Shown piece after piece: positions 2,167 to 20,686 of a stretch of 55,343 nucleotides of DNA. This DNA is from Clostridia bacterium (GTDB lineage: Bacteria; Bacillota; Clostridia; Peptostreptococcales; Anaerovoracaceae), in the NCBI GenBank assembly GCA_024403065.1, contig JAKSSM010000001.1, positions 1-55,343 on the forward strand, read 5' to 3'. The notes below the pieces were generated by a model, which had not been told where the DNA came from, did not search any database, and saw nothing but the letters and a program-made list of their open reading frames with translations. A program made the position numbers and the translations under genes. Within the stretch, counting starts at the first letter, position 1. Each line of letters starts with the position of its first letter.

Positions 2167-2811
2167 TTAACCTTTGTTTTTAACCTGTTTCAGTCCCATA
2201 ACTACCATCCATACATACATGCATGTCTTTGGCATCATGAGCATTCCTATCATTGGGCTTACATCTGAGAAGAGTACTACAGGAAGGTAGAATGCAAAGC
2301 TTAAAAGTATTGCAATCCACATGAATCTGTAGTATCTGTCTTTCCTTTCTTTATAGAATAGAACAACCATTATGATCCCCATAATAGTGAACGGAATGTT
2401 TCTAAGTATTCCATAGAAAAGTGGGTCAGATCCTGTCCAGTCATTCTGTGGAAGGAGACAGAGTGCAATTCTTAATACAGAAAGCACAATCATTGCTGTT
2501 CTTATATTCCTACACTCTTTATTATATCTCTTTTCATAGATAAGATAAAGAATGAGATAGAAAATAGTCATAGTGATGGATGTTACCATCTTGCCAAGTC
2601 CCAAAGATACATGATAGTCTCCTGCAGGATTCAATGCTGCAAGAATTCTTGGTACGAGATGGAATGAGTCGCCGAATACAAGTGTCAGTGTCATGATTCC
2701 AAAAAGTCTGTCATTCTTTCTTCCTTCACTCTTTTTTATGATTACTATTCCAAGTACTGTTGTGAGTATGAGGTAGATTACGCAGAATACTGCTTCCATT
2801 ATTTTCCCCAT
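2167..2811 (-). CDS. Hypothetical polytopic membrane protein
   Basis: 214-aa ORF that is hydrophobic throughout (about 6 TM). Tightly packed between neighbouring minus-strand genes. Confidence 0.5.
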   Translation of the reverse strand: MGKIMEAVFCVIYLILTTVLGIVIIKKSEGRKNDRLFGIMTLTLVFGDSFHLVPRILAALNPAGDYHVSLGLGKMVTSITMTIFYLILYLIYEKRYNKECRNIRTAMIVLSVLRIALCLLPQNDWTGSDPLFYGILRNIPFTIMGIIMVVLFYKERKDRYYRFMWIAILLSFAFYLPVVLFSDVSPMIGMLMMPKTCMYVWMVVMGLKQVKNKG

Positions 2812-2826
2812 AGTTTTATGCCTTTC

Positions 2827-5163
2827 TTAAATGTCTCTTGTCATAATTACTTCTATATGTTTTCCAACCTGTTTTTCTTCTGATGTGAGAGTGAAACCCT
2901 GTTCTTCCCAGAAACGGATTGCATCGGTATTTTCCTTTACGCATCCAAGGGAAAGTCTGTTTACTCCCTGTGCCTTTAAGGATGCTCTGATATCTGCAAA
3001 GAGTTCAGAACCTACTCCGTTATTCTGAAGTTCTGCATCTACCATGAACCAGCCAAGGAAGCAGTTGTTCTTATCAGGATAGTCTGAAATCATGTCCATG
3101 AATGCAACAAGTTTTGTTTCATCATAGAAACCGACAAAGTGAGCATTGTGGTCTTCAGAATCAGGTTTTGTAACTACTGTTGTAAGGCTTCTTCTTGTAG
3201 GTTTTTCGTTTAAGAGTCTGTAGTACCTTACATTTGATCTTGCAAGGTGATATACATCTTCGATATCGGATTCAGTAAGTTTTCTTGCAGTATACTGTGA
3301 TGAAAGGTTTGAAAGGTCAAGTTCAGTCTTCTTTGTTTCATAGTCGATTGCCTGTCTGAACTGAGTTTCATAAAGGTTTCTGTATACGCCACCCTTTGAG
3401 AGAAGTTCTTCATGAGTTCCTTCTTCACAGATAACTCCACCTTTAACAACAAGGATTCTGTCAGCCTTAAGAATTGTTGAAAGACGGTGTGCAATTACAA
3501 TTGATGTACGTCCAATCATCATTGCTTCAAGAGCATCCTGGATGGAACTTTCTGAAATACTGTCAAGAGCTGATGTTGCTTCATCAAGGATAAGAATCTT
3601 AGGATCCTTTAAGATTACTCTTGCGATTGAAAGTCTCTGCTTTTCACCACCGGAAAGTTTCAGTCCACGGTTACCTACAACAGTATTGTATCCATCTGGC
3701 TGTGATACGATGAAGTTATGGATATTTGCAACTTTGCATGCGTGTTCAATTTCTTCATCTGTTGCATCTTCCTTTGCATAGAGGAGATTTTCTCTTATAG
3801 TACCGTTGAAGAGATAGGTATCCTGAGTAACAACTCCGATTGCCTGCCTTAAGTGTACAAGGTCAATATCTCTTACATCGACTCCAGAAATTGTAACCTT
3901 ACCTGAATCTACATCGTAGAGTCTTGGGATGAGATTTACTACTGTAGACTTACCTGAACCTGATGGACCTACTATTGCATACATCTTTCCGCCTGGTACA
4001 TGGAAATTGATATCTGTAAGAAGTGGGTTGTCCTTTTCATAGGAGAATGCCACATGATCGTATTCAATATCAGCATTCTGCATTTCAGGCTTTTTGCCGT
4101 CTTCTGGATTCTTTATTGTATTTTCTCTGTCAAGGTAGTCAAAGATTCTTGTGAAAAGTGCAAGGGATCTTGTGAAGTCTACCTGGATATTAAGGAGGGA
4201 TTCAACAGGACGGTAAAGTCTGTTTATAAGGGCTACAGTTGCTGTAATTGCACCAACAGAAAGCGTTGAATCAAGGTTGTTTATGATAAGGTATCCACCT
4301 GCAAAGTAGATTAAGAGTGGTCCAATCTGAGTAAACATACCCATTACAACTCTGAACCATTTTCCACTTCTGTTTTCCTTGAGTGAATACTTTGTTACTT
4401 CATCATTTATCTTGACGAAATTCTCATATTCCTTTTCTTCTCTTGTAAAGAGTTTTACAAGAAGTGAGCCTGAAACTGAAAGTGTTTCGTTTATAACCTG
4501 GTTCATCTCGTCATGCTTTTCCTGGCTTTCAGTCAGAAGCTTGTAACGTGTTTTGCCAACGGATTTTGTTGGGATGATTAAAAGAGGAATTACTATAACA
4601 CCAACCAGTGCCAGCTTCCAGCTCATGGAAAGAAGGGCAACGGATGTAGTAATTACTGTTGCAATGTTACTTACGATACTTGAGAGTGTTCCAGAAATTA
4701 CAGAGCTTACACCTGAAATATCCGTATTCATTCTTGTAATGATGTCACCCTGCTTTTCTGTAGTAAAAAAGGAGTGTGGCATATATTCAAGATGATGGTA
4801 CATTTCGTTCTTCATGTCATAGATTATCTTCTGTGAAATCCATGCGTTTATATAGCTTTCGATTACACCGATAAGCTGTGAGCACAAGAGTGCTCCAAGT
4901 GCCATAAGAAGAAGCTTTATTAGGAGCTCCATATTCTTTCCGACAAGTGCCTCATCCACAATACGTCCTGTGATTATGGATGGAAGAAGTCCAACTGTTG
5001 CTGAAAGGATGATGGAAACAAAAACGAAGATGAACTGAAGCCAGTAAGGTTTAAGGTAGCCAACAATACGTTTTAAAAGTGCTCCTGTAACCTTTGGTGC
5101 TGTCTTTTTTTCATCTTCTGTAAGAAATCCTCTAGGGCCGAAACTGCCCATACCTGGTGCCAT
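2827..5163 (-). CDS. ABC exporter (fused TMD-NBD, MsbA/type I exporter-like) with a C-terminal GNAT acetyltransferase domain
   Basis: Walker [10 protein letters not shown], signature LSGGEKQR, Walker B ILILDEATSALD and H-loop AHRLST. A 176-aa C-terminal extension carries the GNAT motif A LQNNGVGSELF. Start moved to ATG 5163 (MAPGMGSF...) because GGAGG sits 7 nt upstream; the ORF-track start at 5235 has no RBS. Confidence 0.85.
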   Translation of the reverse strand: MAPGMGSFGPRGFLTEDEKKTAPKVTGALLKRIVGYLKPYWLQFIFVFVSIILSATVGLLPSIITGRIVDEALVGKNMELLIKLLLMALGALLCSQLIGVIESYINAWISQKIIYDMKNEMYHHLEYMPHSFFTTEKQGDIITRMNTDISGVSSVISGTLSSIVSNIATVITTSVALLSMSWKLALVGVIVIPLLIIPTKSVGKTRYKLLTESQEKHDEMNQVINETLSVSGSLLVKLFTREEKEYENFVKINDEVTKYSLKENRSGKWFRVVMGMFTQIGPLLIYFAGGYLIINNLDSTLSVGAITATVALINRLYRPVESLLNIQVDFTRSLALFTRIFDYLDRENTIKNPEDGKKPEMQNADIEYDHVAFSYEKDNPLLTDINFHVPGGKMYAIVGPSGSGKSTVVNLIPRLYDVDSGKVTISGVDVRDIDLVHLRQAIGVVTQDTYLFNGTIRENLLYAKEDATDEEIEHACKVANIHNFIVSQPDGYNTVVGNRGLKLSGGEKQRLSIARVILKDPKILILDEATSALDSISESSIQDALEAMMIGRTSIVIAHRLSTILKADRILVVKGGVICEEGTHEELLSKGGVYRNLYETQFRQAIDYETKKTELDLSNLSSQYTARKLTESDIEDVYHLARSNVRYYRLLNEKPTRRSLTTVVTKPDSEDHNAHFVGFYDETKLVAFMDMISDYPDKNNCFLGWFMVDAELQNNGVGSELFADIRASLKAQGVNRLSLGCVKENTDAIRFWEEQGFTLTSEEKQVGKHIEVIMTRDI

Positions 5164-7803: not shown

Positions 7804-8292
7804 ATGAGAAGAAGAGACAGAGAAGTAACTGACATGAATGAAATAATGCATATTCTTGAAGAGGGCAAGGTTCTTCACCTTGGCTTATCCGATAAGGGTA
7901 TGCCATATATTGTTCCCATGAACTATGGATTTCTTATGGAGGATGGAAAGCTTACATTCTATCTTCATGGTGCACTTGAAGGAAGAAAGCTTGATGTAAT
8001 AAAGGAGAATCCTTTATGCTGCTGCCAGATTGACTGCGATGGTGCTCTTGTAGAAGGAAAGGTTGCATGCCAGTATGGCTACAGCTACTACTCTCTTATG
8101 GGATTCGGAAAAGCCACAATAGTTGATGATCCTTCAGAAAAAATGAAGGGACTTACACTTCTCATGAAGGAACAGACTGGACGTGATTTTGAATTCAACG
8201 AAAAACTTGTTTCAATAGTTGCAGTAATAAGAGTTGACTGTGACAGTTTTACAGCAAAGCATAGACCACTTTCCATGAAACCACAGGTATAG
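7804..8292 (+). CDS. Pyridoxamine 5'-phosphate oxidase family (FMN-binding split-barrel) protein
   Basis: MRRRDREVTD...EIMHILEEGKVLHLGL...PYIVPMNYGF N-terminus is typical of this family. AAGGAG lies 7 nt upstream of ATG 7804. Confidence 0.75.
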   Translation: MRRRDREVTDMNEIMHILEEGKVLHLGLSDKGMPYIVPMNYGFLMEDGKLTFYLHGALEGRKLDVIKENPLCCCQIDCDGALVEGKVACQYGYSYYSLMGFGKATIVDDPSEKMKGLTLLMKEQTGRDFEFNEKLVSIVAVIRVDCDSFTAKHRPLSMKPQV

Positions 8293-8297
8293 CACAT

Positions 8298-8822
8298 ATG
8301 AACTTTACAATAAGAAGAGCAGAAAAAGATGAATACGAGGCTGTAAAGAACTTCTATGATGAAGTAATCGATAGACTCGAGGAATTTGAATATGGTCCAA
8401 AATGGACAAAGGGTGTATACCCTGCATATGACTACCTGAAAAGTTCCGTTGAACTTGGTGACATGTATATAGGGCTTCTTGATGGAAAGATCGTTTCAAG
8501 CATGATTGTAAATGGGGAAGCCAATGAAAGCTACAGAAATGCAAAGTGGGGTCTTGATGTAGATGATGGAGAATATGCAGTTATTCATGCTCTTGGTGTA
8601 ATGCCGGGATTCACAAAAAATGGACTTGGAAAGAAGATGGTTCAGTATGCCATTTCTATCTGTAAGGATAAATACAAATCAGTAAGGCTCGATGTACTTA
8701 AAGGAAATCTTCCTGCAAACAGACTCTATGAGTCGGTTGGCTTCAGAATGACTGATGCACTTCCAATGTTCTATGAAGATACAGGATGGACTGATTTTGA
8801 ATTATATGAATATGTTTTATAA
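8298..8822 (+). CDS. GNAT family N-acetyltransferase
   Basis: 174 aa with an acetyl-CoA motif region LGVMPGFTKNGLGKKMV and NRLYESVGF. Confidence 0.8.
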   Translation: MNFTIRRAEKDEYEAVKNFYDEVIDRLEEFEYGPKWTKGVYPAYDYLKSSVELGDMYIGLLDGKIVSSMIVNGEANESYRNAKWGLDVDDGEYAVIHALGVMPGFTKNGLGKKMVQYAISICKDKYKSVRLDVLKGNLPANRLYESVGFRMTDALPMFYEDTGWTDFELYEYVL

Positions 8823-8840
8823 CAGGCGAGGTTAAATACT

Positions 8841-9611
8841 TTGTTTACTTACACGAATTTTCAGAAAAAGGTATCCCTTGTTTTAAAGGTTATTGTTGCA
8901 ATTGCTGCAGTACTTGGCACATTTTTAAGTGCTTTTGCAGGAAGAAACTCTTTCATGGGTGGAACTACTGTATTCATGTACTTTACCATTCAGTCAAATA
9001 TACTGATTGCACTTGTTTCCCTTGTTGGAATCCTCTTTCTCTTAAGAGGAAAGTCAGGTAAAGTCTGGTATACCCTTACATTTGTAGCAACTGTTGCAAT
9101 AACACTTACAGGAGTTGTATTCTGTTTTGTTCTTGCACCAACCATGGGAAAAGCAGCATGGAATGTTCAGAATATTCTTACACATGTTGTGACTCCAGTT
9201 GTATCAGTACTTGACTTTTTTGTATGTGGTCCATCAGGAAAAATCAGAAAGAAGAATGCATTTCTTGTAATTATCCCACCAATTCTCTATCTCATCTATG
9301 CATCCGTTGGATACGTTAAAGGCTGGGAGTTTGGACCTGGAATCAACTATCCATACTTCTTCCTTAACTGGGGAAGCCCAATGGGAGCATTTGGATTCGG
9401 AAAGGAATTCCCGTTCATGGGTTGTGTATGGTGGATTCTCCTTCTCCTTGTATCCTTTCCTGTTGTAGGATTCCTTTATCTCATAATTGTAGATTTCTTG
9501 AGACTCTTCAGAAAGAAGACAAGAGAAGAAAAGCTTGAAGCTGAACTTAAGGAAAAGGAAGAAGAACTGGAATCAAAGGAAACTGAAAGTGAAGTATCAG
9601 AGGAAGTATAA
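8841..9611 (+). CDS. Polytopic membrane protein (possibly Pr6Pr-type) with highly charged Glu/Lys C-terminal tail
   Basis: TTG start and about 6 TM. The FTIQSN motif is reminiscent of the Pr6Pr family (weak recollection). The tail is ...KKTREEKLEAELKEKEEELESKETESEVSEEV. Confidence 0.5.
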   Translation: MFTYTNFQKKVSLVLKVIVAIAAVLGTFLSAFAGRNSFMGGTTVFMYFTIQSNILIALVSLVGILFLLRGKSGKVWYTLTFVATVAITLTGVVFCFVLAPTMGKAAWNVQNILTHVVTPVVSVLDFFVCGPSGKIRKKNAFLVIIPPILYLIYASVGYVKGWEFGPGINYPYFFLNWGSPMGAFGFGKEFPFMGCVWWILLLLVSFPVVGFLYLIIVDFLRLFRKKTREEKLEAELKEKEEELESKETESEVSEEV

Positions 9612-9712
9612 CCATGTACGAACTGATAAAGATATCAGAAAATGATTGCTATAGAGTTCAGTTTATCTTTAGTGATAACAGAATGCTCTGGTATGCAATA
9701 TAGAAATCAGAA

Positions 9713-9746
9713 GCCTTCAGTATGGTTTTACTGAAGGCCTTTTTTA
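9713..9746 (+). terminator. Rho-independent terminator
   Basis: Stem GCCTTCAG / CTGAAGGC followed by TTTTTT. Confidence 0.75.
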
Positions 9747-14977: not shown

Positions 14978-15871
14978 ATGAAAAGATTTGCAGTCATATT
15001 CCCAATCCTTTCAGGTACATTCTGGGGTTCGTGCGGAATATTTGTGAGATCCCTATCGGGAGCAGAACTTAATAACATTACAATTCTTTTCCTAAGAGCA
15101 TTTGTGAGTACCATATTTCTTCTTTTTCTGATACTCTTAAAGGACCGAAGTCTTCTTAAGATAAATCTTAGGGATCTTCCACTTTTCCTTTCATTTGCCA
15201 TTAATGGAATTACCATTATGAATTTCTTCTATAACCTGGCAATGAATACGGTGTCACTGTCCCTTGCAGCAGTACTTCTATCCACATGTCCTGTATTTGT
15301 AATGATAATTGCAGCAGTACTTTTCGGAGAGAAGATTACACCACTAAAGGTTTCATGCATGCTTGCAACAATTGCAGGATGCTTTATGCTTTCGGGAGTT
15401 CTTGATGGAAAGGAAATGATAGTAAGTGGCATCGGTATCCTCTTTGGAATAGGAGCAGCGGTATTCAATGCCATATATATTACAACTGTAAAGGCTCTTA
15501 CAAACAGAAACTACAACAACCTTACAATCCTTTTCTACGGATTCATGTTTGCAAGCGTAGTACTTCTTTTCTTCTGTGATTTCAGAGCAGTTGGGAGTTT
15601 TGTAAAGGCAGAACCACTCTATGGAATTACTTTGATAATTTCACAGAGTGCAGTATCAACCCTTCTTCCAAATCTTCTTTTCACAAAAGGAATGCAGTAT
15701 ATGGAGTCGGGAAAGGTTACTGTATTCTCCAGTGGAGCAGAGCCTGTTTCAGCCATGCTCTTTGGACTTTTCATATACAAAGAGGTACCAACGGTATTTG
15801 GAATACTGGGACTCATTACAGTAATTACAGCACTTACAGTTCTTACACTGAAAGGAGAGAAAACAGAATGA
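14978..15871 (+). CDS. EamA/DMT superfamily transporter
   Basis: 10-TM pattern in two EamA-like halves. ATG 14978 (MKRFAVIFPILSG...) chosen because the track's GTG 14882 extension overlaps the thioesterase gene. Confidence 0.8.
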   Translation: MKRFAVIFPILSGTFWGSCGIFVRSLSGAELNNITILFLRAFVSTIFLLFLILLKDRSLLKINLRDLPLFLSFAINGITIMNFFYNLAMNTVSLSLAAVLLSTCPVFVMIIAAVLFGEKITPLKVSCMLATIAGCFMLSGVLDGKEMIVSGIGILFGIGAAVFNAIYITTVKALTNRNYNNLTILFYGFMFASVVLLFFCDFRAVGSFVKAEPLYGITLIISQSAVSTLLPNLLFTKGMQYMESGKVTVFSSGAEPVSAMLFGLFIYKEVPTVFGILGLITVITALTVLTLKGEKTE

Positions 15872-16365
15872 AAAAAGCAGTTCCATTTCTTGTTCTTGCT
15901 ATAGCAGTTATCCTCATTGTGCTTTTCCTTGTAAAGGGAAAAGGCGATGAAAAGGAAATGGTCTATGAATCAGAAATTCTTAAAAATGCAGGAGTAACAG
16001 AATTTACTCTTCAGTATTCAGGAAGCAGTTCTGGTGGCCATGAATTCTATATCTATGGTATTGAAAAGGGCAAGTGGGTCCTTACTGTAAAAGAACAGGA
16101 AACATTCAATTCCAAAGAAAAGGTAAAGAAATACAAGGCTGATGAAGAGGGCATGCTTAAGCTCTACACAATCTTTACTGAAAATGACCTTGAGCATTCA
16201 AAGGAAAGAGAAGGTGAAAGAATCTACATCCTTGATGGTGCAACAGCAACGGTTTCAGTAACTTCAGACGGAAAGAGAATCTGGGTTCATGAAAGTGAGA
16301 TGCCTGAAGATGAGCACAAGTATCTCGGTGAAATCTGGTCCGTAATAAAGGAATACATCAGATAG
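15868..16365 (+). CDS. Membrane-anchored hypothetical protein
   Basis: N-terminal TM anchor. 4-nt ATGA overlap with the EamA gene. No family recognised. Confidence 0.5.
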   Translation: MKKAVPFLVLAIAVILIVLFLVKGKGDEKEMVYESEILKNAGVTEFTLQYSGSSSGGHEFYIYGIEKGKWVLTVKEQETFNSKEKVKKYKADEEGMLKLYTIFTENDLEHSKEREGERIYILDGATATVSVTSDGKRIWVHESEMPEDEHKYLGEIWSVIKEYIR

Positions 16366-16368
16366 CTT

Positions 16369-16392
16369 AAGAAGGGTAATCCCTTCTTTTTC
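16369..16392 (+). terminator. Rho-independent terminator
   Basis: AAGAAGGG-TAAT-CCCTTCTT followed by a T-run. Confidence 0.75.
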
Positions 16393-16408: not shown

Positions 16409-16438
16409 TTGAAGAAACAGCATAAAAAATGGTAAAAT
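16409..16438 (+). promoter_or_regulatory. Sigma-A-like promoter candidate for the radical SAM operon
   Basis: TTGAAG, 18-nt spacer, TAAAAT, located 40 nt upstream of ATG 16480. Confidence 0.45.
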
Positions 16439-16479
16439 ACATTGTTAACATTTATCCAATAAATATACGGAGATAGAAA

Positions 16480-17859
16480 ATGGGTTTAAACAAAAGACTT
16501 AGAAAATATGCTGAAGAGAATCTTCAGGGAATGGTACACACAACTCTCAATCCGGAGGGACCTGGAGTTGTAAGAATTCATCTTGTTCCACCAAGATTTG
16601 ATGGAGAGAATGTAATCAACTCTGTTGCCATCATCAACGGACAGGACATTATTCCTGTTGATGTTTCCTGGACTGTACTCCTCACAGAATTCATCAAGGA
16701 AGTAAATAAATATGACGGAAAGCCTGTAAATGATCAGGATGTGGAAAATATCGTAAATGCAACTTTAAAGAATGTAAGAAAGGTATATCATCTCCTTCCA
16801 AAGAAAAAGGTAAGAGAAGGTATCTACAAGCTCATGAATTCATTCAAGCAGATTGCATATGGTGAAGAGGTTACTGAAGAAATCGGATACCTTAACATCG
16901 GTGAATACGCAGACTCCATGCGTGCACCTCACAGAATGGACCTTCTTGTATCAGCAATGACAAAGGATGGACACTGGCACTGCAACCAGAAGTGTGTTCA
17001 CTGCTATGCTGCAGGACAGGTTTATGCTGAAGAACAGGAACTTTCAACAGAAGAATGGAAGAAGGTTATCGACAAGTGCAGGGAAGTATGTATCCCTCAG
17101 CTCACATTTACTGGTGGAGAACCAACAATGAGAGATGATCTTCCAGAACTCATCAGATATGCTGCATGGTTTGTAACAAGACTCAATACCAATGGTATCA
17201 GACTCACAAAGGAACTCTGCAGAGAACTTCGTGAAGCATCCTTGGACAGCATGCAGATTACATTCTATTCAGATGAAGAGGAAATCCATAACGCGCTTGT
17301 TGGCGCAAACCACTATAAGGATACAGTAGCAGGTATTGAAAACGCAGTTGAAGCTGGAATCAGCGTAAGCATCAATACTCCACTCTGTGTTTCAAACAGA
17401 GACTATGTAAAGACTCTCAGGTTCCTTAAGGAAAAGGGCGTACAGTTTGTAACATGTTCAGGCCTTATCACTACAGGTAATGCTGAAACTGAACAGTCAA
17501 CATCACTTCAGCTTTCAAAGGAAGAAATCAAGGCAATCTTAAAGGATGCTGTAGAATTCTGCTATGCAAACGAAATGGAAATCAGTTTCACATCCCCAGG
17601 ATGGATTGAAAAGGAATTCTTCGATGAACTTGGTATTTCAACACCAACATGCGGTGCATGCTTAAGCAATATGGCAATTACTCCAAGCGGAAATGTTGTT
17701 CCATGTCAGAGCTGGCTTTCAGGAGATGCTCTTGGAAACATACTTACTGACGACTGGAAGAGAATCTGGGATGGACCTCTCTGCTCAGAAAGAAGAGCAT
17801 ATTCTGCTGAAATGCTTGGTGAATGCCCATTAAGAAAATATACAGGAGGTGAGAACTAA
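16480..17859 (+). CDS. Radical SAM enzyme with twitch/SPASM-like C-terminal domain and about 150-aa N-terminal extension
   Basis: CX3CX2C = C168 NQK C172 VH C175 (nt 16981-17004). GGEPTM SAM-binding motif. C-terminal C391-GA-C394-X9-G-X4-C409 matches the first half of the SPASM/twitch signature. GGAG RBS upstream. Confidence 0.85.
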   Translation: MGLNKRLRKYAEENLQGMVHTTLNPEGPGVVRIHLVPPRFDGENVINSVAIINGQDIIPVDVSWTVLLTEFIKEVNKYDGKPVNDQDVENIVNATLKNVRKVYHLLPKKKVREGIYKLMNSFKQIAYGEEVTEEIGYLNIGEYADSMRAPHRMDLLVSAMTKDGHWHCNQKCVHCYAAGQVYAEEQELSTEEWKKVIDKCREVCIPQLTFTGGEPTMRDDLPELIRYAAWFVTRLNTNGIRLTKELCRELREASLDSMQITFYSDEEEIHNALVGANHYKDTVAGIENAVEAGISVSINTPLCVSNRDYVKTLRFLKEKGVQFVTCSGLITTGNAETEQSTSLQLSKEEIKAILKDAVEFCYANEMEISFTSPGWIEKEFFDELGISTPTCGACLSNMAITPSGNVVPCQSWLSGDALGNILTDDWKRIWDGPLCSERRAYSAEMLGECPLRKYTGGEN

Positions 17860-19172
17860 TGAACAAGAAAAGATTTTCTGTAATATTAATTGCGTTACTC
17901 CTTCTCGTTTTATCCATTGCTCCATTTGCAAGTGCAGCTTCTCCTACAGATGAGATTCTCCTCTATGAAATCACTGCAGATGTAAATGACGATGGTACAG
18001 TAGACCTTGTATATCACATTCAGTGGAAGGTACTCGTATCCGATGGAATCGGACCTTTAAACTGGGTAAATATCGGTATTGCAAATGACCAGTATATAGA
18101 CTATGAGCCATTAAGCGATACCATCGACAACATGTGGTACCATGGCGAAGGTGGAGAAAGCTTCATGCAGATCTATTTTGACCGTGACTACTACAAGGGA
18201 GAAGTATGTGACTTCTCATTCAAGGTTGTTCAGGACTATATCTATCAGATGAACCTTCTTCAGGATGGAGTAACAACATACAAGTTCACTCCAGGCTGGT
18301 TCAATGATATTGCAGTAGACAAATTCGTTTTCAGATGGAACAATGAAAAGACTGTAAGCCACTCACCTGCAGGTATCGTAAAAGACGGATACATGACATG
18401 GGAAGAAAGCTTAAAGCCAGGTGAATATATTTCATTCATGATTGACTACAACAATGATGCCTTCATGTTCAATGAAACAAAGACTATCGAGAGTGGTGAA
18501 TCATACTACCATGGCGGCGGATATGACTACGATGATGACGACAGCATATTTGAAATCATTGCAGGACTCTTTGCACTCTGCTTCTTTGGTGGAATCTTCA
18601 TTGTAATCGGAAAGATTTTATCAGCTGTTGCAAGATTCGCAACAGGTGCTTCCATGAGTGCTACAAAGACTCAGAAGAAGATTACACGTACAAAGATTGT
18701 TTACTGGCCAGAATGTCAGGGCTGTGGTGCTGTAAGAAAAGACGGCGAAACTACATGCTCATACTGTGGCAGAAGCTTTGTAAAGAGTGAAGAAATTCTT
18801 AAGGAAGAAGATATCAAGGCTCAGGATAAGGATGCCTTGAAATACAGAACAAACGGAGAGTATCACTACTCATCATCACCTGATACATTTATCAGAATCA
18901 ATGTAGTAAATGTTCCTGTTCCAAAGAGCAGTTCATCTTCATCCCGTCCATCAAGTTCAAGAACTTCAAGCTCCGGATCATCACGTTCACACAGTTCCTG
19001 TGCTCACAGTTCCTGTGCACACAGCTCCTGTGCATGCGCTTCATCCTGTGCATGTGCCTGCGCATGTGCCTGCGCTGGAGGCGGAAGAGCCGGTTGTACA
19101 ACAAAGGACTTCTACAATACTGGACTTAAACTCAAGCAGCTTGAGATGAAGAAAAAGGCAAAGAGAAGATAA
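17859..19172 (+). CDS. Single-pass membrane protein: signal peptide, DUF2207-like ectodomain, TM, zinc ribbon, poly-Ser and Cys-rich (HSSCA/CA repeat) tail
   Basis: Start overlaps the radical SAM stop (TAATG). Signal peptide ends ...PFASA. EITADVNDDGTVDLVYHIQWKV resembles the DUF2207 N-terminus. TM is IIAGLFALCFFGGIFIVIG. Zinc ribbon is CQGCG...CSYCG. Tail has 10 Cys between nt 18999 and 19097. Confidence 0.65.
   Translation: MNKKRFSVILIALLLLVLSIAPFASAASPTDEILLYEITADVNDDGTVDLVYHIQWKVLVSDGIGPLNWVNIGIANDQYIDYEPLSDTIDNMWYHGEGGESFMQIYFDRDYYKGEVCDFSFKVVQDYIYQMNLLQDGVTTYKFTPGWFNDIAVDKFVFRWNNEKTVSHSPAGIVKDGYMTWEESLKPGEYISFMIDYNNDAFMFNETKTIESGESYYHGGGYDYDDDDSIFEIIAGLFALCFFGGIFIVIGKILSAVARFATGASMSATKTQKKITRTKIVYWPECQGCGAVRKDGETTCSYCGRSFVKSEEILKEEDIKAQDKDALKYRTNGEYHYSSSPDTFIRINVVNVPVPKSSSSSSRPSSSRTSSSGSSRSHSSCAHSSCAHSSCACASSCACACACACAGGGRAGCTTKDFYNTGLKLKQLEMKKKAKRR
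18990..19076 (+). repeat. In-frame tandem repeats inside the CDS (3 x 15 bp, then 2 x 12 bp)
   Basis: CACAGTTCCTGTGCT / CACAGTTCCTGTGCA / CACAGCTCCTGTGCA at 18990-19034. TGTGCCTGCGCA / TGTGCCTGCGCT at 19053-19076. Confidence 0.9.
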
Positions 19173-19188
19173 AAGTATAACAGACATT

Positions 19189-19229
19189 AAAAAATGGGAC
19201 ATTCTGATGTGTGAGATGTCCCATTTTTG
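19189..19229. terminator. Bidirectional rho-independent terminator
   Basis: 12-bp stem AAAATGGGACAT / ATGTCCCATTTT with a 13-nt loop, flanked by A-run and T-run. Confidence 0.8.
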
Positions 19230-19242
19230 ATGTATTGATATA

Positions 19243-20526
19243 TTAGAGTTCGTCAGGTGTATGTCTGTATTCAATTTCTTTCCACTTGCCGCCTTCAGCT
19301 CTATGCATTTCTTCTGTTGCATGAACCCATCTTAAAACTGTTTTATCTTCTGGGAAGAATTCGATGAATTTTCCGTCTACGAATGTATAGAATCTTGAAA
19401 TATCTGTACACATTCCATATGTTGGAACCTGGTCAGTTGTAAGGTCGAATGTATATGGTTCATCAAAGAGTGTTCCGTTAAAGTGAAGACCCTTATGATC
19501 AAGTGTAAGCATTCCCTGACCGTTTGTTTCTGATGTCTTGCTTCCTGAAAGGAATCTGTCTTCTGGAAGTGTTCCAACCTTTACGATTTCCTTTAAAACG
19601 AAATCAGGATTCTTTACATCTTCCTTTGCCTTTGCTCTTTCCATAAGTACCCAGTCTGTTACAAGTTCTGGACATACGGAGTCACCTACAGGTGTCAGAT
19701 TGTATTTTGAATCAAGTTCAACTTCATTACCGCATACGTTGCACTTCATACGGTTTCCTGATACTTCCATTCTGTGCATTGCACCGCACTTTGGACACAT
19801 GTAGAGGAGTGTATCAAGTTCAGATGCCATATCATTCTTGTTCTTGTATGAAACTTGCGCAGTCTTGTTCCAGATGTAGTCATCGTGAGCAAGAAGTCTG
19901 TTCATCTTGTCAAGAATTTCTTCTACAGTGAGAGTTTGAAGTTCTTCCTTTGTGAACATGATGTCACATACGGATACGCACTTTCCTTTTCTTGAACCAA
20001 GGATGTGCTTTGGATATGTAAGGTAGGCACCTGATGTATGAGCATAGTATACCGGCTGTCCGATGCTCTTTAAGAGCTTTGCGGAGCCGAGTGCTACAGG
20101 CTGCTGCATACCAGTGATTGAGTTCATTCCTTCAGGCATGAAACAGATATTTCCACCCTGTTTTACAATGCTCTTGATCTGCTTCATAGCATAGATGTCA
20201 GGAGTGAAATTCTTCTTTGGAATAGCCTGAGCAAGTCTTAAAAGGATTCCAAGAGGGAATCTGAAGAACTCATTGTATCCTACAACATAGTTGAGCTTGT
20301 TTGGGTAGCAGAATGGAGCTGTGAAAAGATAGTCATTTCTGCAGGCATGATTTGCAATGAACACGAATGGTTCCTTTTCCTTGCTTGGATCAGCCTTAAC
20401 AATATATTCAGCATTTACTGTTTTTGCAATAATCTTTACTACGATGGAAAGGATTGCAAACAGAACTGTATTAGGTTTCTTTACCTGTCTTTTATGGAGT
20501 TTTTCCTGAAGTGTAAGCTTTGCCAT
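19243..20526 (-). CDS. PlsC-family acyltransferase with zinc ribbon (paralogue of 6543-7802)
   Basis: HX4D motif NHACRND and zinc ribbon CPKCG...CNVCG, with the same overall architecture as 6543-7802. Start set at ATG 20526 (MAKLTLQEK...), which has an AGGA-type RBS; the track start 20556 has none. Confidence 0.75.
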   Translation of the reverse strand: MAKLTLQEKLHKRQVKKPNTVLFAILSIVVKIIAKTVNAEYIVKADPSKEKEPFVFIANHACRNDYLFTAPFCYPNKLNYVVGYNEFFRFPLGILLRLAQAIPKKNFTPDIYAMKQIKSIVKQGGNICFMPEGMNSITGMQQPVALGSAKLLKSIGQPVYYAHTSGAYLTYPKHILGSRKGKCVSVCDIMFTKEELQTLTVEEILDKMNRLLAHDDYIWNKTAQVSYKNKNDMASELDTLLYMCPKCGAMHRMEVSGNRMKCNVCGNEVELDSKYNLTPVGDSVCPELVTDWVLMERAKAKEDVKNPDFVLKEIVKVGTLPEDRFLSGSKTSETNGQGMLTLDHKGLHFNGTLFDEPYTFDLTTDQVPTYGMCTDISRFYTFVDGKFIEFFPEDKTVLRWVHATEEMHRAEGGKWKEIEYRHTPDEL

Positions 20527-20686
20527 AATATTTTTTCCTTTCGATTCTGTTGTCATATATATTCAGTATATTAGATTATCTAACTATTTGCAATTAAATG
20601 TTGAAAAATCGCAAGCTTTTGCTTTAACTGTATATATGTTTGTGATATAATTCTTGGTGTTTTCGTAAAAAAGGAGATATATTGAA

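Follow-up and report, generated by a model that had tools for sequence, protein, structure and literature searches.

A radical SAM enzyme of predicted peptide-modifying type encoded beside a single-pass membrane protein with a conserved cysteine-alanine tail

Introduction

RRE-dependent radical SAM (rSAM) maturases are known almost only from pathways that make small secreted peptides or excised cofactors. The sactisynthase SkfB of Bacillus subtilis, which matures the sporulation killing factor, comprises an N-terminal RiPP recognition element (RRE), an rSAM partial barrel and a C-terminal Twitch domain with a single auxiliary cluster (PMC6231123). Its substrate is a free, Cys-containing 55-aa precursor that is later cleaved and exported. 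CteB and other ranthipeptide and sactipeptide maturases also combine an RRE with an rSAM domain and act on Cys-rich peptides. CteB has a full SPASM domain with two auxiliary clusters, the substrate Cys binds an auxiliary cluster, and its substrate, SCIFF, is a free peptide of about 45 aa. In the PqqE/PqqD/PqqA and MftC/MftB/MftA pathways, a PqqD-type RRE and an rSAM-SPASM enzyme act on a strongly conserved core, the cofactor (PQQ or mycofactocin) is excised from a small peptide, and there are additional dedicated genes.

In other systems, the product remains part of a functional protein. QhpD/QhpC, which introduces thioether cross-links into the gamma subunit of quinohemoprotein amine dehydrogenase, and anSME, which acts on sulfatases, are rSAM-SPASM enzymes of this type. 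Their substrates are soluble, exported enzyme subunits, and neither family has an N-terminal RRE. In the four-gene His-Xaa-Ser (HXS) antiphage system, HxsABCD, which includes two rSAM enzymes, HxsB and HxsC mature the full-size, envelope-associated HxS-repeat protein HxsA (PMC13128918). The HXS effector is periplasmic.

Here, we examined a two-gene unit in a 55,343-nt stretch of DNA from a Clostridia bacterium (the window; assembly GCA_024403065.1, contig JAKSSM010000001.1, positions 1 to 55,343 of the forward strand). An earlier note, made from the sequence alone, had proposed that the rSAM enzyme and the neighbouring membrane protein form an in-cis maturase/substrate pair or, alternatively, that the tail of the membrane protein is a metal or Fe-S binding partner.

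Results

Organization of the two-gene unit

To evaluate the proposal, we first re-examined the sequence. The observation held: a 459-aa rSAM enzyme and a 437-aa membrane protein are encoded by two open reading frames that overlap by one base and lie between two terminators, as the earlier note had described (Table 1). The stop TAA (17857-17859) shares its last base with the start ATG (17859-17861), and the Shine-Dalgarno sequence AGGAGGTG lies at 17844-17851. The promoter-like site proposed in the note, TTGAAG-18-TAAAAT, is present and has a TG before the −10 hexamer. However, the region holds 9 such sites and shuffled sequence yields 9.0 on average, so the match alone is not evidence and the promoter is plausible but unproven. 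No Pfam or NCBIfam model or paper describes the pair.

Table 1. Features of the two-gene unit. Positions refer to the window; residues are numbered within each protein.
Position	Strand	Feature	Residues	Basis
16369..16392	+	Intrinsic terminator of the upstream gene, isolating the unit on its 5' side		Stem 16369-16388 with 8 pairs, followed by a T-run
16409..16438	+	Promoter-like site		Motif scan
16480..17859	+	rSAM enzyme gene: RRE domain, rSAM core, Twitch-like domain	1-459	ORF; Pfam; AF2 model, pLDDT 81
16525..16878	+	N-terminal PqqD-type RRE (four strands, then three helices)	about 16-133	Model: E19-23, E31-36, E48-52, E56-60, H62-78, H85-99, H108-126
16981..17004	+	CX3CX2C motif for the SAM-cleaving [4Fe-4S] cluster	C168, C172, C175	Read from sequence
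17650..17826	+	Twitch-like (partial SPASM) domain, one auxiliary-cluster site	C391, C394-X9-G404-X4-C409, C435, C449	PF13186 at residues 391-444
17844..17861	+	Shine-Dalgarno sequence inside the end of gene 1, then the TAATG stop/start overlap		Read from sequence
17859..19172	+	Single-pass membrane protein gene, candidate substrate	1-437	ORF
17859..17936	+	Signal peptide or N-terminal anchor (MNKKR, a hydrophobic core, then ASA/AS)		Hydropathy peak at residues 2-30; helix 4-19 in the model
17949..18473	+	Extracytoplasmic all-beta sandwich domain	about 31-205	pLDDT mostly above 90
18546..18632	+	Transmembrane helix	230-258	Hydropathy; helix 230-262 in the model
18669..18917	+	Folded cytoplasmic zinc-ribbon/beta domain	271-353; CxxC 286/289 and 300/303	pLDDT 86-94
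18999..19097	+	Cys-rich tail, predicted to be disordered	381-413; 10 Cys in 33 residues	pLDDT 30-46
19053..19115	+	Near-invariant core CACACACAGGGRAGCTTKDFY, proposed site of modification	399-419	Conservation per position
19104..19169	+	C-terminal amphipathic, basic helix (KDFYNTGLKLKQLEMKKKAKRR), possible 'follower' recognition element		Helices 416-420 and 423-436 in the model
19184..19233 (approximate)	.	Bidirectional intrinsic terminator shared with the convergent acyltransferase gene		−22.4 kcal/mol, z = −5.7; flanked by an A-run and a U-run

Domain architecture of the rSAM enzyme

The enzyme belongs to the rSAM superfamily and to its SPASM/Twitch subgroup. More specifically, PF04055 matched residues 168-302 (7e-24; 85.3 bits against a cut-off of 29.5) and PF13186 matched the C-terminal domain (26.8 bits against 21.5), which contains the CX9-15GX4C element. 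The CX3CX2C motif was conserved in 19 of 20 diverse homologues, the exception being a paralogue, and the GGE motif occurs as an invariant TFTGGEPT. In the C-terminal domain, C391, C409 and C449 were conserved in all true orthologues, while C394 and C435 were lineage-dependent. The second motif of a full SPASM domain, CX2CX5CX3C, is absent, as are the 7-8 Cys of a two-cluster domain. The domain is therefore Twitch-like, with one auxiliary cluster. In Firmicutes, this site has up to five Cys, such that an open coordination site for a substrate Cys is not guaranteed.

The earlier note had left an N-terminal extension of about 150 aa unexplained. We assigned this region as a PqqD-type RRE. In fold comparisons, the best matches of the model were SkfB, CteB and SuiB, and matches to RRE-containing maturases, TigE among them, spanned about 430 columns. 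The N-terminus of the window enzyme itself did not reach the Pfam PqqD threshold, so the assignment relies on fold and on orthologues: the orthologue at one of the homologous loci (L046) matched PF05402 at 29.9 bits against a cut-off of 23.4, and hhalign of the Firmicutes and distant N-terminal profiles gave a probability of 87.5% (E = 3.6e-6). The presence of this domain strengthens the maturase/substrate reading.

To test membership in named families, we compared the enzyme with NCBIfam models. It scored below the cut-offs for SkfB (TIGR04403; 59.3 bits against 300), HxsC (TIGR03977; 57.7 against 267.9), the ACGX-repeat system (TIGR04340; 57 against 400) and MoaA (96.5 against 325). Among the NirJ/AhbC/AhbD haem-modifying enzymes, the best was NirJ2 (107.6 against 500). 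The repeat in the tail is C-A, not A-C-G-X.

Architecture and topology of the membrane protein

The membrane protein matched no Pfam or NCBIfam family. The label 'DUF2207-like' (PF09972), given in the note to its N-terminus, was not supported: the window protein had no Pfam hit at E ≤ 1, and one distant homologue (L017) reached only E = 0.086 (13.5 bits against a cut-off of 24.4). The predicted ectodomain had weak fold similarity to the ribophorin-I/OST1 luminal domain and the M1-aminopeptidase N-domain (E about 2e-6) and was conserved at 27-35% identity in distant phyla.

An extracytoplasmic tail had been named in advance as an observation that would refute the idea, so we examined topology. 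Hydrophobic segments occurred only at about residues 6-24 and 230-258, and the net charge was −5 before the transmembrane helix and +6 after it. According to the positive-inside rule, the C-terminus is cytoplasmic, on the same side as the enzyme.

Co-occurrence of the two genes

The note had also held that the idea would fail if homologues of either gene usually occurred without the other. We therefore analyzed loci seeded from each gene. Of 48 loci seeded from the membrane protein, 47 carried the rSAM gene next to it; the single exception begins at a contig end. These loci included Lachnospiraceae, Oscillospiraceae, Chitinivibrionia, Krumholzibacteriia, Zixiibacteriota, Aminicenantes, Dehalococcoidia, Anaerolineaceae and Sabulitectum. 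Of the loci seeded from the rSAM gene, all 68 with at least 250 nt of flanking DNA carried the membrane protein gene next to it. In 96 of 98 loci, the order was rSAM then membrane gene, on the same strand and closely spaced; the stop/start overlap itself was not shown to be universal. Some loci carried two tailed copies per enzyme, like multi-precursor RiPP clusters. A profile search with the membrane protein found 880 clusters at 50% identity (E ≤ 1e-3). The family is common in human-gut and rumen Clostridia and reaches at least half a dozen phyla.

Only these two genes recurred in the neighbourhoods: no protease, transporter or further tailoring gene was conserved near the pair in about 130 loci. 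These data bear on the possibility that the tail core is modified and then cut off by an unlinked protease to release a small RiPP or redox cofactor, as PqqA yields PQQ and MftA yields mycofactocin, with the membrane protein serving only as a carrier. Highly conserved cores and RRE-dependent rSAM-SPASM enzymes are typical of those pathways, PqqE and MftC were among the partial NCBIfam hits, and the core lies 9-38 residues from the C-terminus. However, the conserved ectodomain and transmembrane helix would have no purpose in a mere carrier. Moreover, no free precursor peptide was found: two of the short tail-only gene calls were traced to their contigs, and both are frameshift pieces of the membrane gene. 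We consider this reading unlikely.

We also considered whether the pair is an envelope-associated defence or conflict module in which the enzyme matures a protein effector, by analogy with the HXS system. In support of this, rSAM maturation of a protein effector has precedent (PMC13128918), the window protein has HxS-like HSSCA repeats, and the pair occurs in varied genomic contexts. By contrast, no HxsB- or HxsD-like third or fourth gene was present, the HxS repeats are absent outside the Lachnospiraceae-type lineage, and the region proposed to be modified is cytoplasmic, not periplasmic. PADLOC returned only generic viperin-core matches. There were no plasmid hits, and the single 'phage' hit was a faecal scaffold that has not been verified. 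This reading is very unlikely.

Conservation of the tail

To identify the conserved part of the tail, we compared 102 tail-bearing representatives of 50%-identity clusters. The tail ends in CACACACAGGGRAGC[STA]xKDFY, each position of which was 85-100% conserved, including the Ala and Gly residues, while the ectodomain drifts to 27-50% identity. Beyond K-D-F-Y, the C-terminal helix varied. All synonymous codons were used while the amino acids stayed fixed, which indicates selection on the protein. The HSSCA repeats, poly-Ser stretch and zinc ribbon, which the note had described, proved to be specific to the Lachnospiraceae-type lineage, and the zinc-ribbon domain was absent from the Oscillospiraceae-type and non-Firmicutes homologues. 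The universal element is CACACACAGGGRAGC[STA]xKDFY. No classical leader peptide was identified, and the sequence between the transmembrane helix and the core was not conserved between lineages.

Near-total invariance of a core is atypical for RiPPs and would also fit a metal or Fe-S binding site. In this alternative, the CxCxCxC...C motif would hold a cluster or metal and act as an electron conduit, cluster donor or membrane anchor for the enzyme, whose true substrate would be something else, such as a membrane lipid or a small molecule. The density and CxC spacing of the Cys residues resemble metallothionein-like sites. The second-best PDB sequence hit of the enzyme was the lipid-modifying GDGT-MAS (7.2e-14), NCBIfam also listed the tetraether lipid synthase Tes (54 bits), and tethering to a membrane protein would place the enzyme at the bilayer. 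However, the GDGT-MAS and Tes matches covered only the generic rSAM core (residues 164-267 and 167-297, respectively) and were far below family cut-offs, and an RRE is not expected in a lipid- or small-molecule-modifying rSAM enzyme. Further, the Ala and Gly residues between and after the Cys are as invariant as the Cys, which simple metal ligation does not require, and the tail is predicted to be disordered. We therefore regard this alternative as doubtful.

Discussion

Overall, the data support the interpretation of the earlier note, in that neither co-occurrence nor predicted topology refuted it. The best explanation is a self-contained two-gene module in which an RRE-containing rSAM enzyme of the SPASM/Twitch subgroup post-translationally modifies the cytoplasmic C-terminal tail of its neighbouring single-pass membrane protein. 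We assign this reading a probability of about 0.6. It is a strongly supported candidate rather than a demonstrated reaction: no modification was observed, thioether formation between Cys-S and C-alpha was not measured, and no enzyme-tail complex was modelled. What the analysis itself establishes is the architecture of the enzyme (a peptide-recognition domain, a SAM-cleaving cluster site and one auxiliary-cluster site), the cytoplasmic placement of a disordered tail ending in the near-invariant motif, both by prediction, and the inseparability of the two genes across several phyla with nothing else conserved around them. The mechanism, by contrast, is inferred. In this view, the RRE docks onto the tail, possibly at the K-D-F-Y follower or the flanking sequence, and the flexible Gly/Ala/Cys core threads into the active site. 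A 5'-deoxyadenosyl radical would then abstract a hydrogen from a small acceptor residue (Ala or Gly), and a Cys thiolate held at the auxiliary cluster would close a thioether, as in the closest relatives SkfB and CteB, perhaps several times along the Cys-Ala ladder. Thioether cross-links are the leading guess for a chemistry that is unknown. As no protease or exporter is linked to the pair, the product is expected to stay on the membrane protein as a cross-linked or cofactor-like module rather than being released as a natural product.

In a bolder form of this hypothesis, which we consider about as likely as not, one or several radical-derived cross-links, or another covalent change, are installed in an invariant 21-residue Cys/Ala/Gly core that is a permanent part of the tail. 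The result would be a non-released, RiPP-like module, perhaps redox-active or metal-binding, coupled to an extracellular beta-sandwich domain. If the tail is modified, this defines a previously unrecognized post-translational modification and a new functional class of membrane proteins, shared by gut and rumen Clostridia and several other anaerobic phyla. It also provides a simple two-gene system for studying how an RRE-rSAM enzyme handles a protein-sized, membrane-tethered substrate.

The enzyme has an architecture already known from RiPP maturases, and what differs is that the machinery appears to be dedicated to the intracellular tail of an integral membrane protein. As in HXS, an rSAM enzyme would mature a full-size protein, but the HXS system has four genes. 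anSME is a fold match (E = 4.5e-10), but the anSME recognition motif, C/S-x-P/A-x-R, is absent from the tail sequence SCAHSSCAHSSCACASSCACACACACAGGGRAGCTTK, and the substrates of anSME and QhpD/QhpC are not integral membrane proteins. The PQQ and mycofactocin pathways share the PqqD-type RRE and a strongly conserved core but have dedicated additional genes of which none is conserved here. CteB is the second-best fold match (5WGG; E = 3.9e-12) and likewise combines an RRE with an rSAM domain, but has the second auxiliary cluster that the enzyme described here lacks. SkfB is the best PDB match by sequence (6EFN; 2.5e-15) and by fold (E = 1.1e-12 over 432 columns) and has the same three-domain layout, although identity is only 19%. 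Whereas SkfB acts on a free precursor, the Cys-rich peptide encoded next to the present enzyme is the tail of a membrane protein.

Organization of the two-gene unit

To investigate the arrangement of the radical SAM (rSAM) gene and the membrane protein gene, we mapped the ORFs, terminators and promoter-like sites of the region. Both ORFs were found where the earlier note had placed them, and the last base of the TAA stop of the first gene is the first base of the ATG of the second. A strong Shine-Dalgarno sequence, AGGAGGTG, precedes this overlap. The unit lies between an intrinsic terminator, followed by a T-run, and a hairpin that folds at -22.4 kcal/mol (z = -5.7), with no shuffled sequence folding as well. 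The hairpin is flanked by an A-run and a U-run, so it can also terminate the convergent acyltransferase gene. The promoter-like TTGAAG-18-TAAAAT described in the note is present, but such matches are no more frequent than in shuffled sequence (9 found, 9.0 expected). All of the Cys positions given in the note are correct, and its observation of the gene pair holds. The whole window contains no tRNA and no Rfam hit. The coordinates of these features, and of features from homologous loci (L-numbers), are tabulated below.

Coordinates of the two-gene unit, its neighbours and selected features of homologous loci
Source	Position	Strand	Feature
Window	15868-16365	+	165-aa protein with an N-terminal membrane anchor and no Pfam hit; immediately upstream of the unit and separated from it by a terminator; not conserved beside the pair elsewhere
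Window	16369-16388		Intrinsic terminator preceding the unit
Window	16480-17859	+	rSAM enzyme gene (459 aa)
Window	17844-17851		Shine-Dalgarno sequence
Window	17857-17859		TAA stop of the rSAM gene
Window	17859-19172	+	Membrane protein gene (437 aa)
Window	about 19184-19233		Terminator hairpin
Window	19243-20556	-	Convergent PlsC-type acyltransferase (PF01553, residues 56-169) with a long C-terminal extension containing a CPKC...CNVC zinc-ribbon-like motif; not conserved next to the pair in other loci
L012	35-1300	-	Tailed membrane protein gene
L012	2907-4154	+	Tailed membrane protein gene
L015	5113-6375	-	Tailed membrane protein gene
L015	7959-9215	+	Tailed membrane protein gene
L028	7499-8446		Ectodomain paralogue
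L028	8443-9183		Middle ectodomain paralogue (246 aa); ends just after its TM helix, with no tail
L028	9147-10136		Ectodomain paralogue
L046	7989-9542		Long membrane protein gene
L047 (Anaerolineaceae MAG)	7902-9740		Long membrane protein gene
L047	9762-11141		True rSAM gene
L047	11157-12311		Second rSAM-like paralogue
L048	2868-5225		Long membrane protein gene
L129	3229-4159		Membrane gene split by a frameshift
L130	2-620		Membrane gene split by a frameshift
L131 (MT837216.1)	2517-3848		rSAM gene
L131	from 4001		Membrane protein gene; tail at 4895

Domain content of the rSAM enzyme

According to Pfam, the enzyme contains Radical_SAM (7e-24, residues 168-302) and SPASM (26.8 bits against a 21.5 cut-off, residues 391-444) domains. 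By contrast, no NCBIfam equivalog came near its cut-off. The best score was that of NirJ2 (108 bits against 500), while SkfB scored 59 against 300, HxsC 58 against 268 and ACGX 57 against 400. The AhbC/D, MoaA, PqqE, MftC, GeoRSP, SCM and Tes models likewise scored far below their cut-offs. The enzyme therefore belongs to no named family.

An AlphaFold2 model (pLDDT 81, pTM 0.83) showed an N-terminal module of four strands and three helices (residues 19-126) preceding the barrel. In a Foldseek search of the PDB, SkfB, CteB, SuiB and TigE ranked first, with alignments of about 430 columns. These are all RiPP maturases with an N-terminal RiPP recognition element (RRE), whereas enzymes without that domain, such as anSME and MoaA, aligned over only about 325 columns. 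SkfB was also the best PDB hit by sequence (2.5e-15). The window sequence alone did not reach the Pfam PqqD threshold, and a PDB sequence search with the N-terminal profile gave no significant hit. The RRE assignment rests instead on fold, on an orthologue and on profile comparison. More specifically, the orthologue next to the homologous membrane gene in locus L046 scored 29.9 bits for PF05402 against a 23.4 cut-off, and an hhalign profile-profile comparison linked the Firmicutes N-termini to that group with 87.5% probability and E=3.6e-6 over window residues 16-133. The 150-aa extension that the earlier note had left unexplained is therefore a PqqD-type RRE.

Among 19 diverse orthologues, the universally conserved Cys are 168/172/175 together with 391, 409 and 449, while C394 and C435 are lineage-dependent. 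No CX2CX5CX3C motif exists. The C-terminal domain is thus Twitch-like, with one auxiliary cluster, although the model coordinates were not inspected for cluster geometry. RRE + rSAM + Twitch is exactly the architecture reported for SkfB (PMC6231123). In L047, the paralogue directly after the true rSAM gene has V/A/A in place of the three CX3CX2C cysteines, but keeps a PqqD-like N-terminus (22.8 bits) and a Radical_SAM fold hit. It may be a catalytically dead pseudo-rSAM that acts as a peptide chaperone.

Predicted topology and structure of the membrane protein

Scans of the membrane protein against Pfam, NCBIfam and PADLOC found no family. The earlier note had described its N-terminus as DUF2207-like, a label that is not supported. 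Hydropathy showed only an N-terminal signal or anchor and one TM helix (residues 230-258). The net charge is -5 just before the helix and +6 just after it, so the C-terminal 180 residues are predicted to be cytoplasmic.

The AlphaFold2 model comprised a confident all-beta ectodomain (residues 31-205, pLDDT mostly above 90), the TM helix, a folded cytoplasmic zinc-ribbon/beta domain (residues 271-353, pLDDT 86-94), a disordered Ser- and Cys-rich stretch (residues 357-414, pLDDT 30-46) and a short basic helix. The ectodomain, whose function is unknown, resembles the ribophorin-I/OST1 luminal domain and the N-domain of M1 aminopeptidases only weakly (E about 2e-6).

Linkage of the two genes

To examine whether the two genes occur together, we first scanned one genome per species, seeding from the membrane protein. 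This yielded 48 loci from Lachnospiraceae, Oscillospiraceae, Gemmiger, Saccharofermentans and Bacilli MAGs, and also from Chitinivibrionia, Krumholzibacteriia, Zixiibacteriota, Aminicenantes, Dehalococcoidia, Anaerolineaceae, Sabulitectum and a Pseudomonadota MAG. An rSAM homologue of 31-70% identity lies directly beside the membrane gene in 47 of them, and the exception starts at base 1 of its contig. We then scanned metagenomes, seeding from the enzyme, which yielded 80 loci at 50-68% identity. All 68 loci with at least 250 nt of DNA beyond the enzyme gene carry the membrane gene next to it, and the 12 without it have less than 170 nt of room. This second scan sampled only homologues of at least 50% identity, more distant ones having been reached only from the membrane-protein side, and most loci are MAG or metagenome contigs. 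The order is rSAM then membrane gene, on the same strand, in 96 of 98 cases, with little or no spacer. Two outcomes had been named in advance as counting against a dedicated pair: that homologues of either gene would usually occur without the other, and that the tail would be predicted to be extracytoplasmic. Neither was observed.

Clustering of all flanking ORFs over 129 loci found no third recurrent gene, whether protease, transporter or second enzyme. A protein search with the tail alone returned only gene calls of 43-86 aa, and the two that were traced (P0246 and P0272) are frameshift pieces of the membrane gene beside an rSAM gene or at a contig end. No free precursor peptide was seen. 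It is therefore improbable that the core is excised as a cofactor or peptide, a possibility disfavoured by the absence of any linked protease or transporter and by the conserved ectodomain. The membrane gene is often split by a frameshift in or near the TGY-GCN repeat that encodes the Cys tail (loci L094, L099, L114, L129 and L130, and gene call P0387). This may be sequencing or assembly error at the repeat or real slippage, between which we did not distinguish.

Some loci have extra membrane-protein genes for a single rSAM gene. L012 and L015 each carry two tailed copies, one on each strand on either side of the rSAM gene, and L028 has three tandem ectodomain paralogues. This suggests multiple substrates and possibly hetero-oligomers.

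We also considered an HXS-like defence module. No plasmid hit was found, and the only match in the phage collection, L131, is an unannotated 7.4-kb scaffold from human faeces, recorded as 'UNVERIFIED: Bacteriophage sp.', that simply carries the same pair. It is probably a misclassified bacterial contig rather than evidence of phage carriage. A defence role is very unlikely, being disfavoured by the failed HxsC membership, the missing partner genes, the cytoplasmic location of the tail and the lack of any mobility signal.

Conservation of the cysteine-rich tail

The HSSCA repeats, the poly-Ser stretch and the zinc ribbon, all described in the earlier note, are confined to the Lachnospiraceae-type proteins, and other lineages have quite different linkers. 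What is universal is the end of the tail. Over 102 tail-bearing representatives among the best hits of the profile search (50%-identity clusters), each position of C-A-C-A-C-A-C-A-G-G-G-R-A-G-C-[STA]-x-K-[DN]-[FL]-Y is 85-100% conserved, and a further 9-38 residues follow. Over the same set, the ectodomain falls to 27-50% identity. Every synonymous codon is used at these positions, so selection acts on the peptide and not on a DNA repeat. The family has 880 clusters at 50% identity with E<=1e-3, and 289 with E<=1e-30. Of the top 148 representatives, 104 carry the tail. Most of the rest are truncated or frameshifted gene calls, and a few appear to be genuinely tail-less paralogues.

In L038 and L040-L043 (Chitinivibrionia, Krumholzibacteriia, Zixiibacteriota and Aminicenantes), the tails read CACACACAGG[GS]GAGC[ST]RK, with Arg replaced by Gly, and are followed by HxCPxC instead of KDFY. 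The follower segment therefore differs between the deep lineages, as do their RRE sequences. The long versions of the protein in L046, L047 and L048 (517-785 aa) have an extra cytoplasmic domain, and their tail ends ...CACACAGCACACAGGGR-stop with no AGC. Their rSAM partners lack both C394 and C435. The last tail Cys may co-vary with an enzyme Cys, but there are only three such loci. In L046 and L047 the gene order is reversed, whereas in L048 the rSAM gene lies upstream as usual.

The Ala and Gly residues of the tail are as fixed as the Cys. This argues for steric constraints, such as passage through an active site or a tight cross-linked product, which mere metal ligation would not require. 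An alternative in which the tail is an Fe-S or metal site, or a membrane tether for an enzyme with a different substrate such as a lipid, is therefore unlikely, being disfavoured by the RRE and by the invariant non-Cys residues.

Proposed modification of the tail

The best-supported reading, to which we assign a probability of about 0.6, is that the tail is the in-cis substrate of an RRE-guided rSAM maturase and that the product remains on the protein. The earlier note's proposal of a maturase and its substrate is thus supported. The analysis itself establishes the domain content of the enzyme, the cytoplasmic (predicted), disordered and invariant nature of the core and the strict two-gene linkage. 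It is by inference that the RRE docks onto the tail, no enzyme-tail complex having been modelled, and that hydrogen abstraction is followed by Cys-thioether closure, by analogy with SkfB and CteB. That the modification may repeat along the Cys-Ala ladder is likewise inferred. The chemistry could equally be something else, such as epimerization or another cross-link.

Comparison with known systems

Databases call the proteins only 'radical SAM protein' and 'hypothetical protein'. Literature searches on the tail motif, on rSAM enzymes with DUF2207, and on rSAM/RRE enzymes with transmembrane or cysteine-rich substrates found no description of this pair in the library searched. The only 'GGGRAGC' hit was in an unrelated lamb-colon multi-omics paper, presumably as a nucleotide string. 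No curated model covers the two proteins.

In the proposed reading, the pair works like a maturase-precursor pair of the SkfB/CteB type. In keeping its product on a protein, it resembles QhpD/QhpC, anSME/sulfatase and HxsBC/HxsA (PMC13128918). It is not a member of any of those families, because every equivalog model fails. Several things set it apart from these systems: the proposed substrate core is the cytoplasmic tail of a single-pass membrane protein with a conserved ectodomain, the core is nearly invariant across phyla, and nothing else accompanies the pair.
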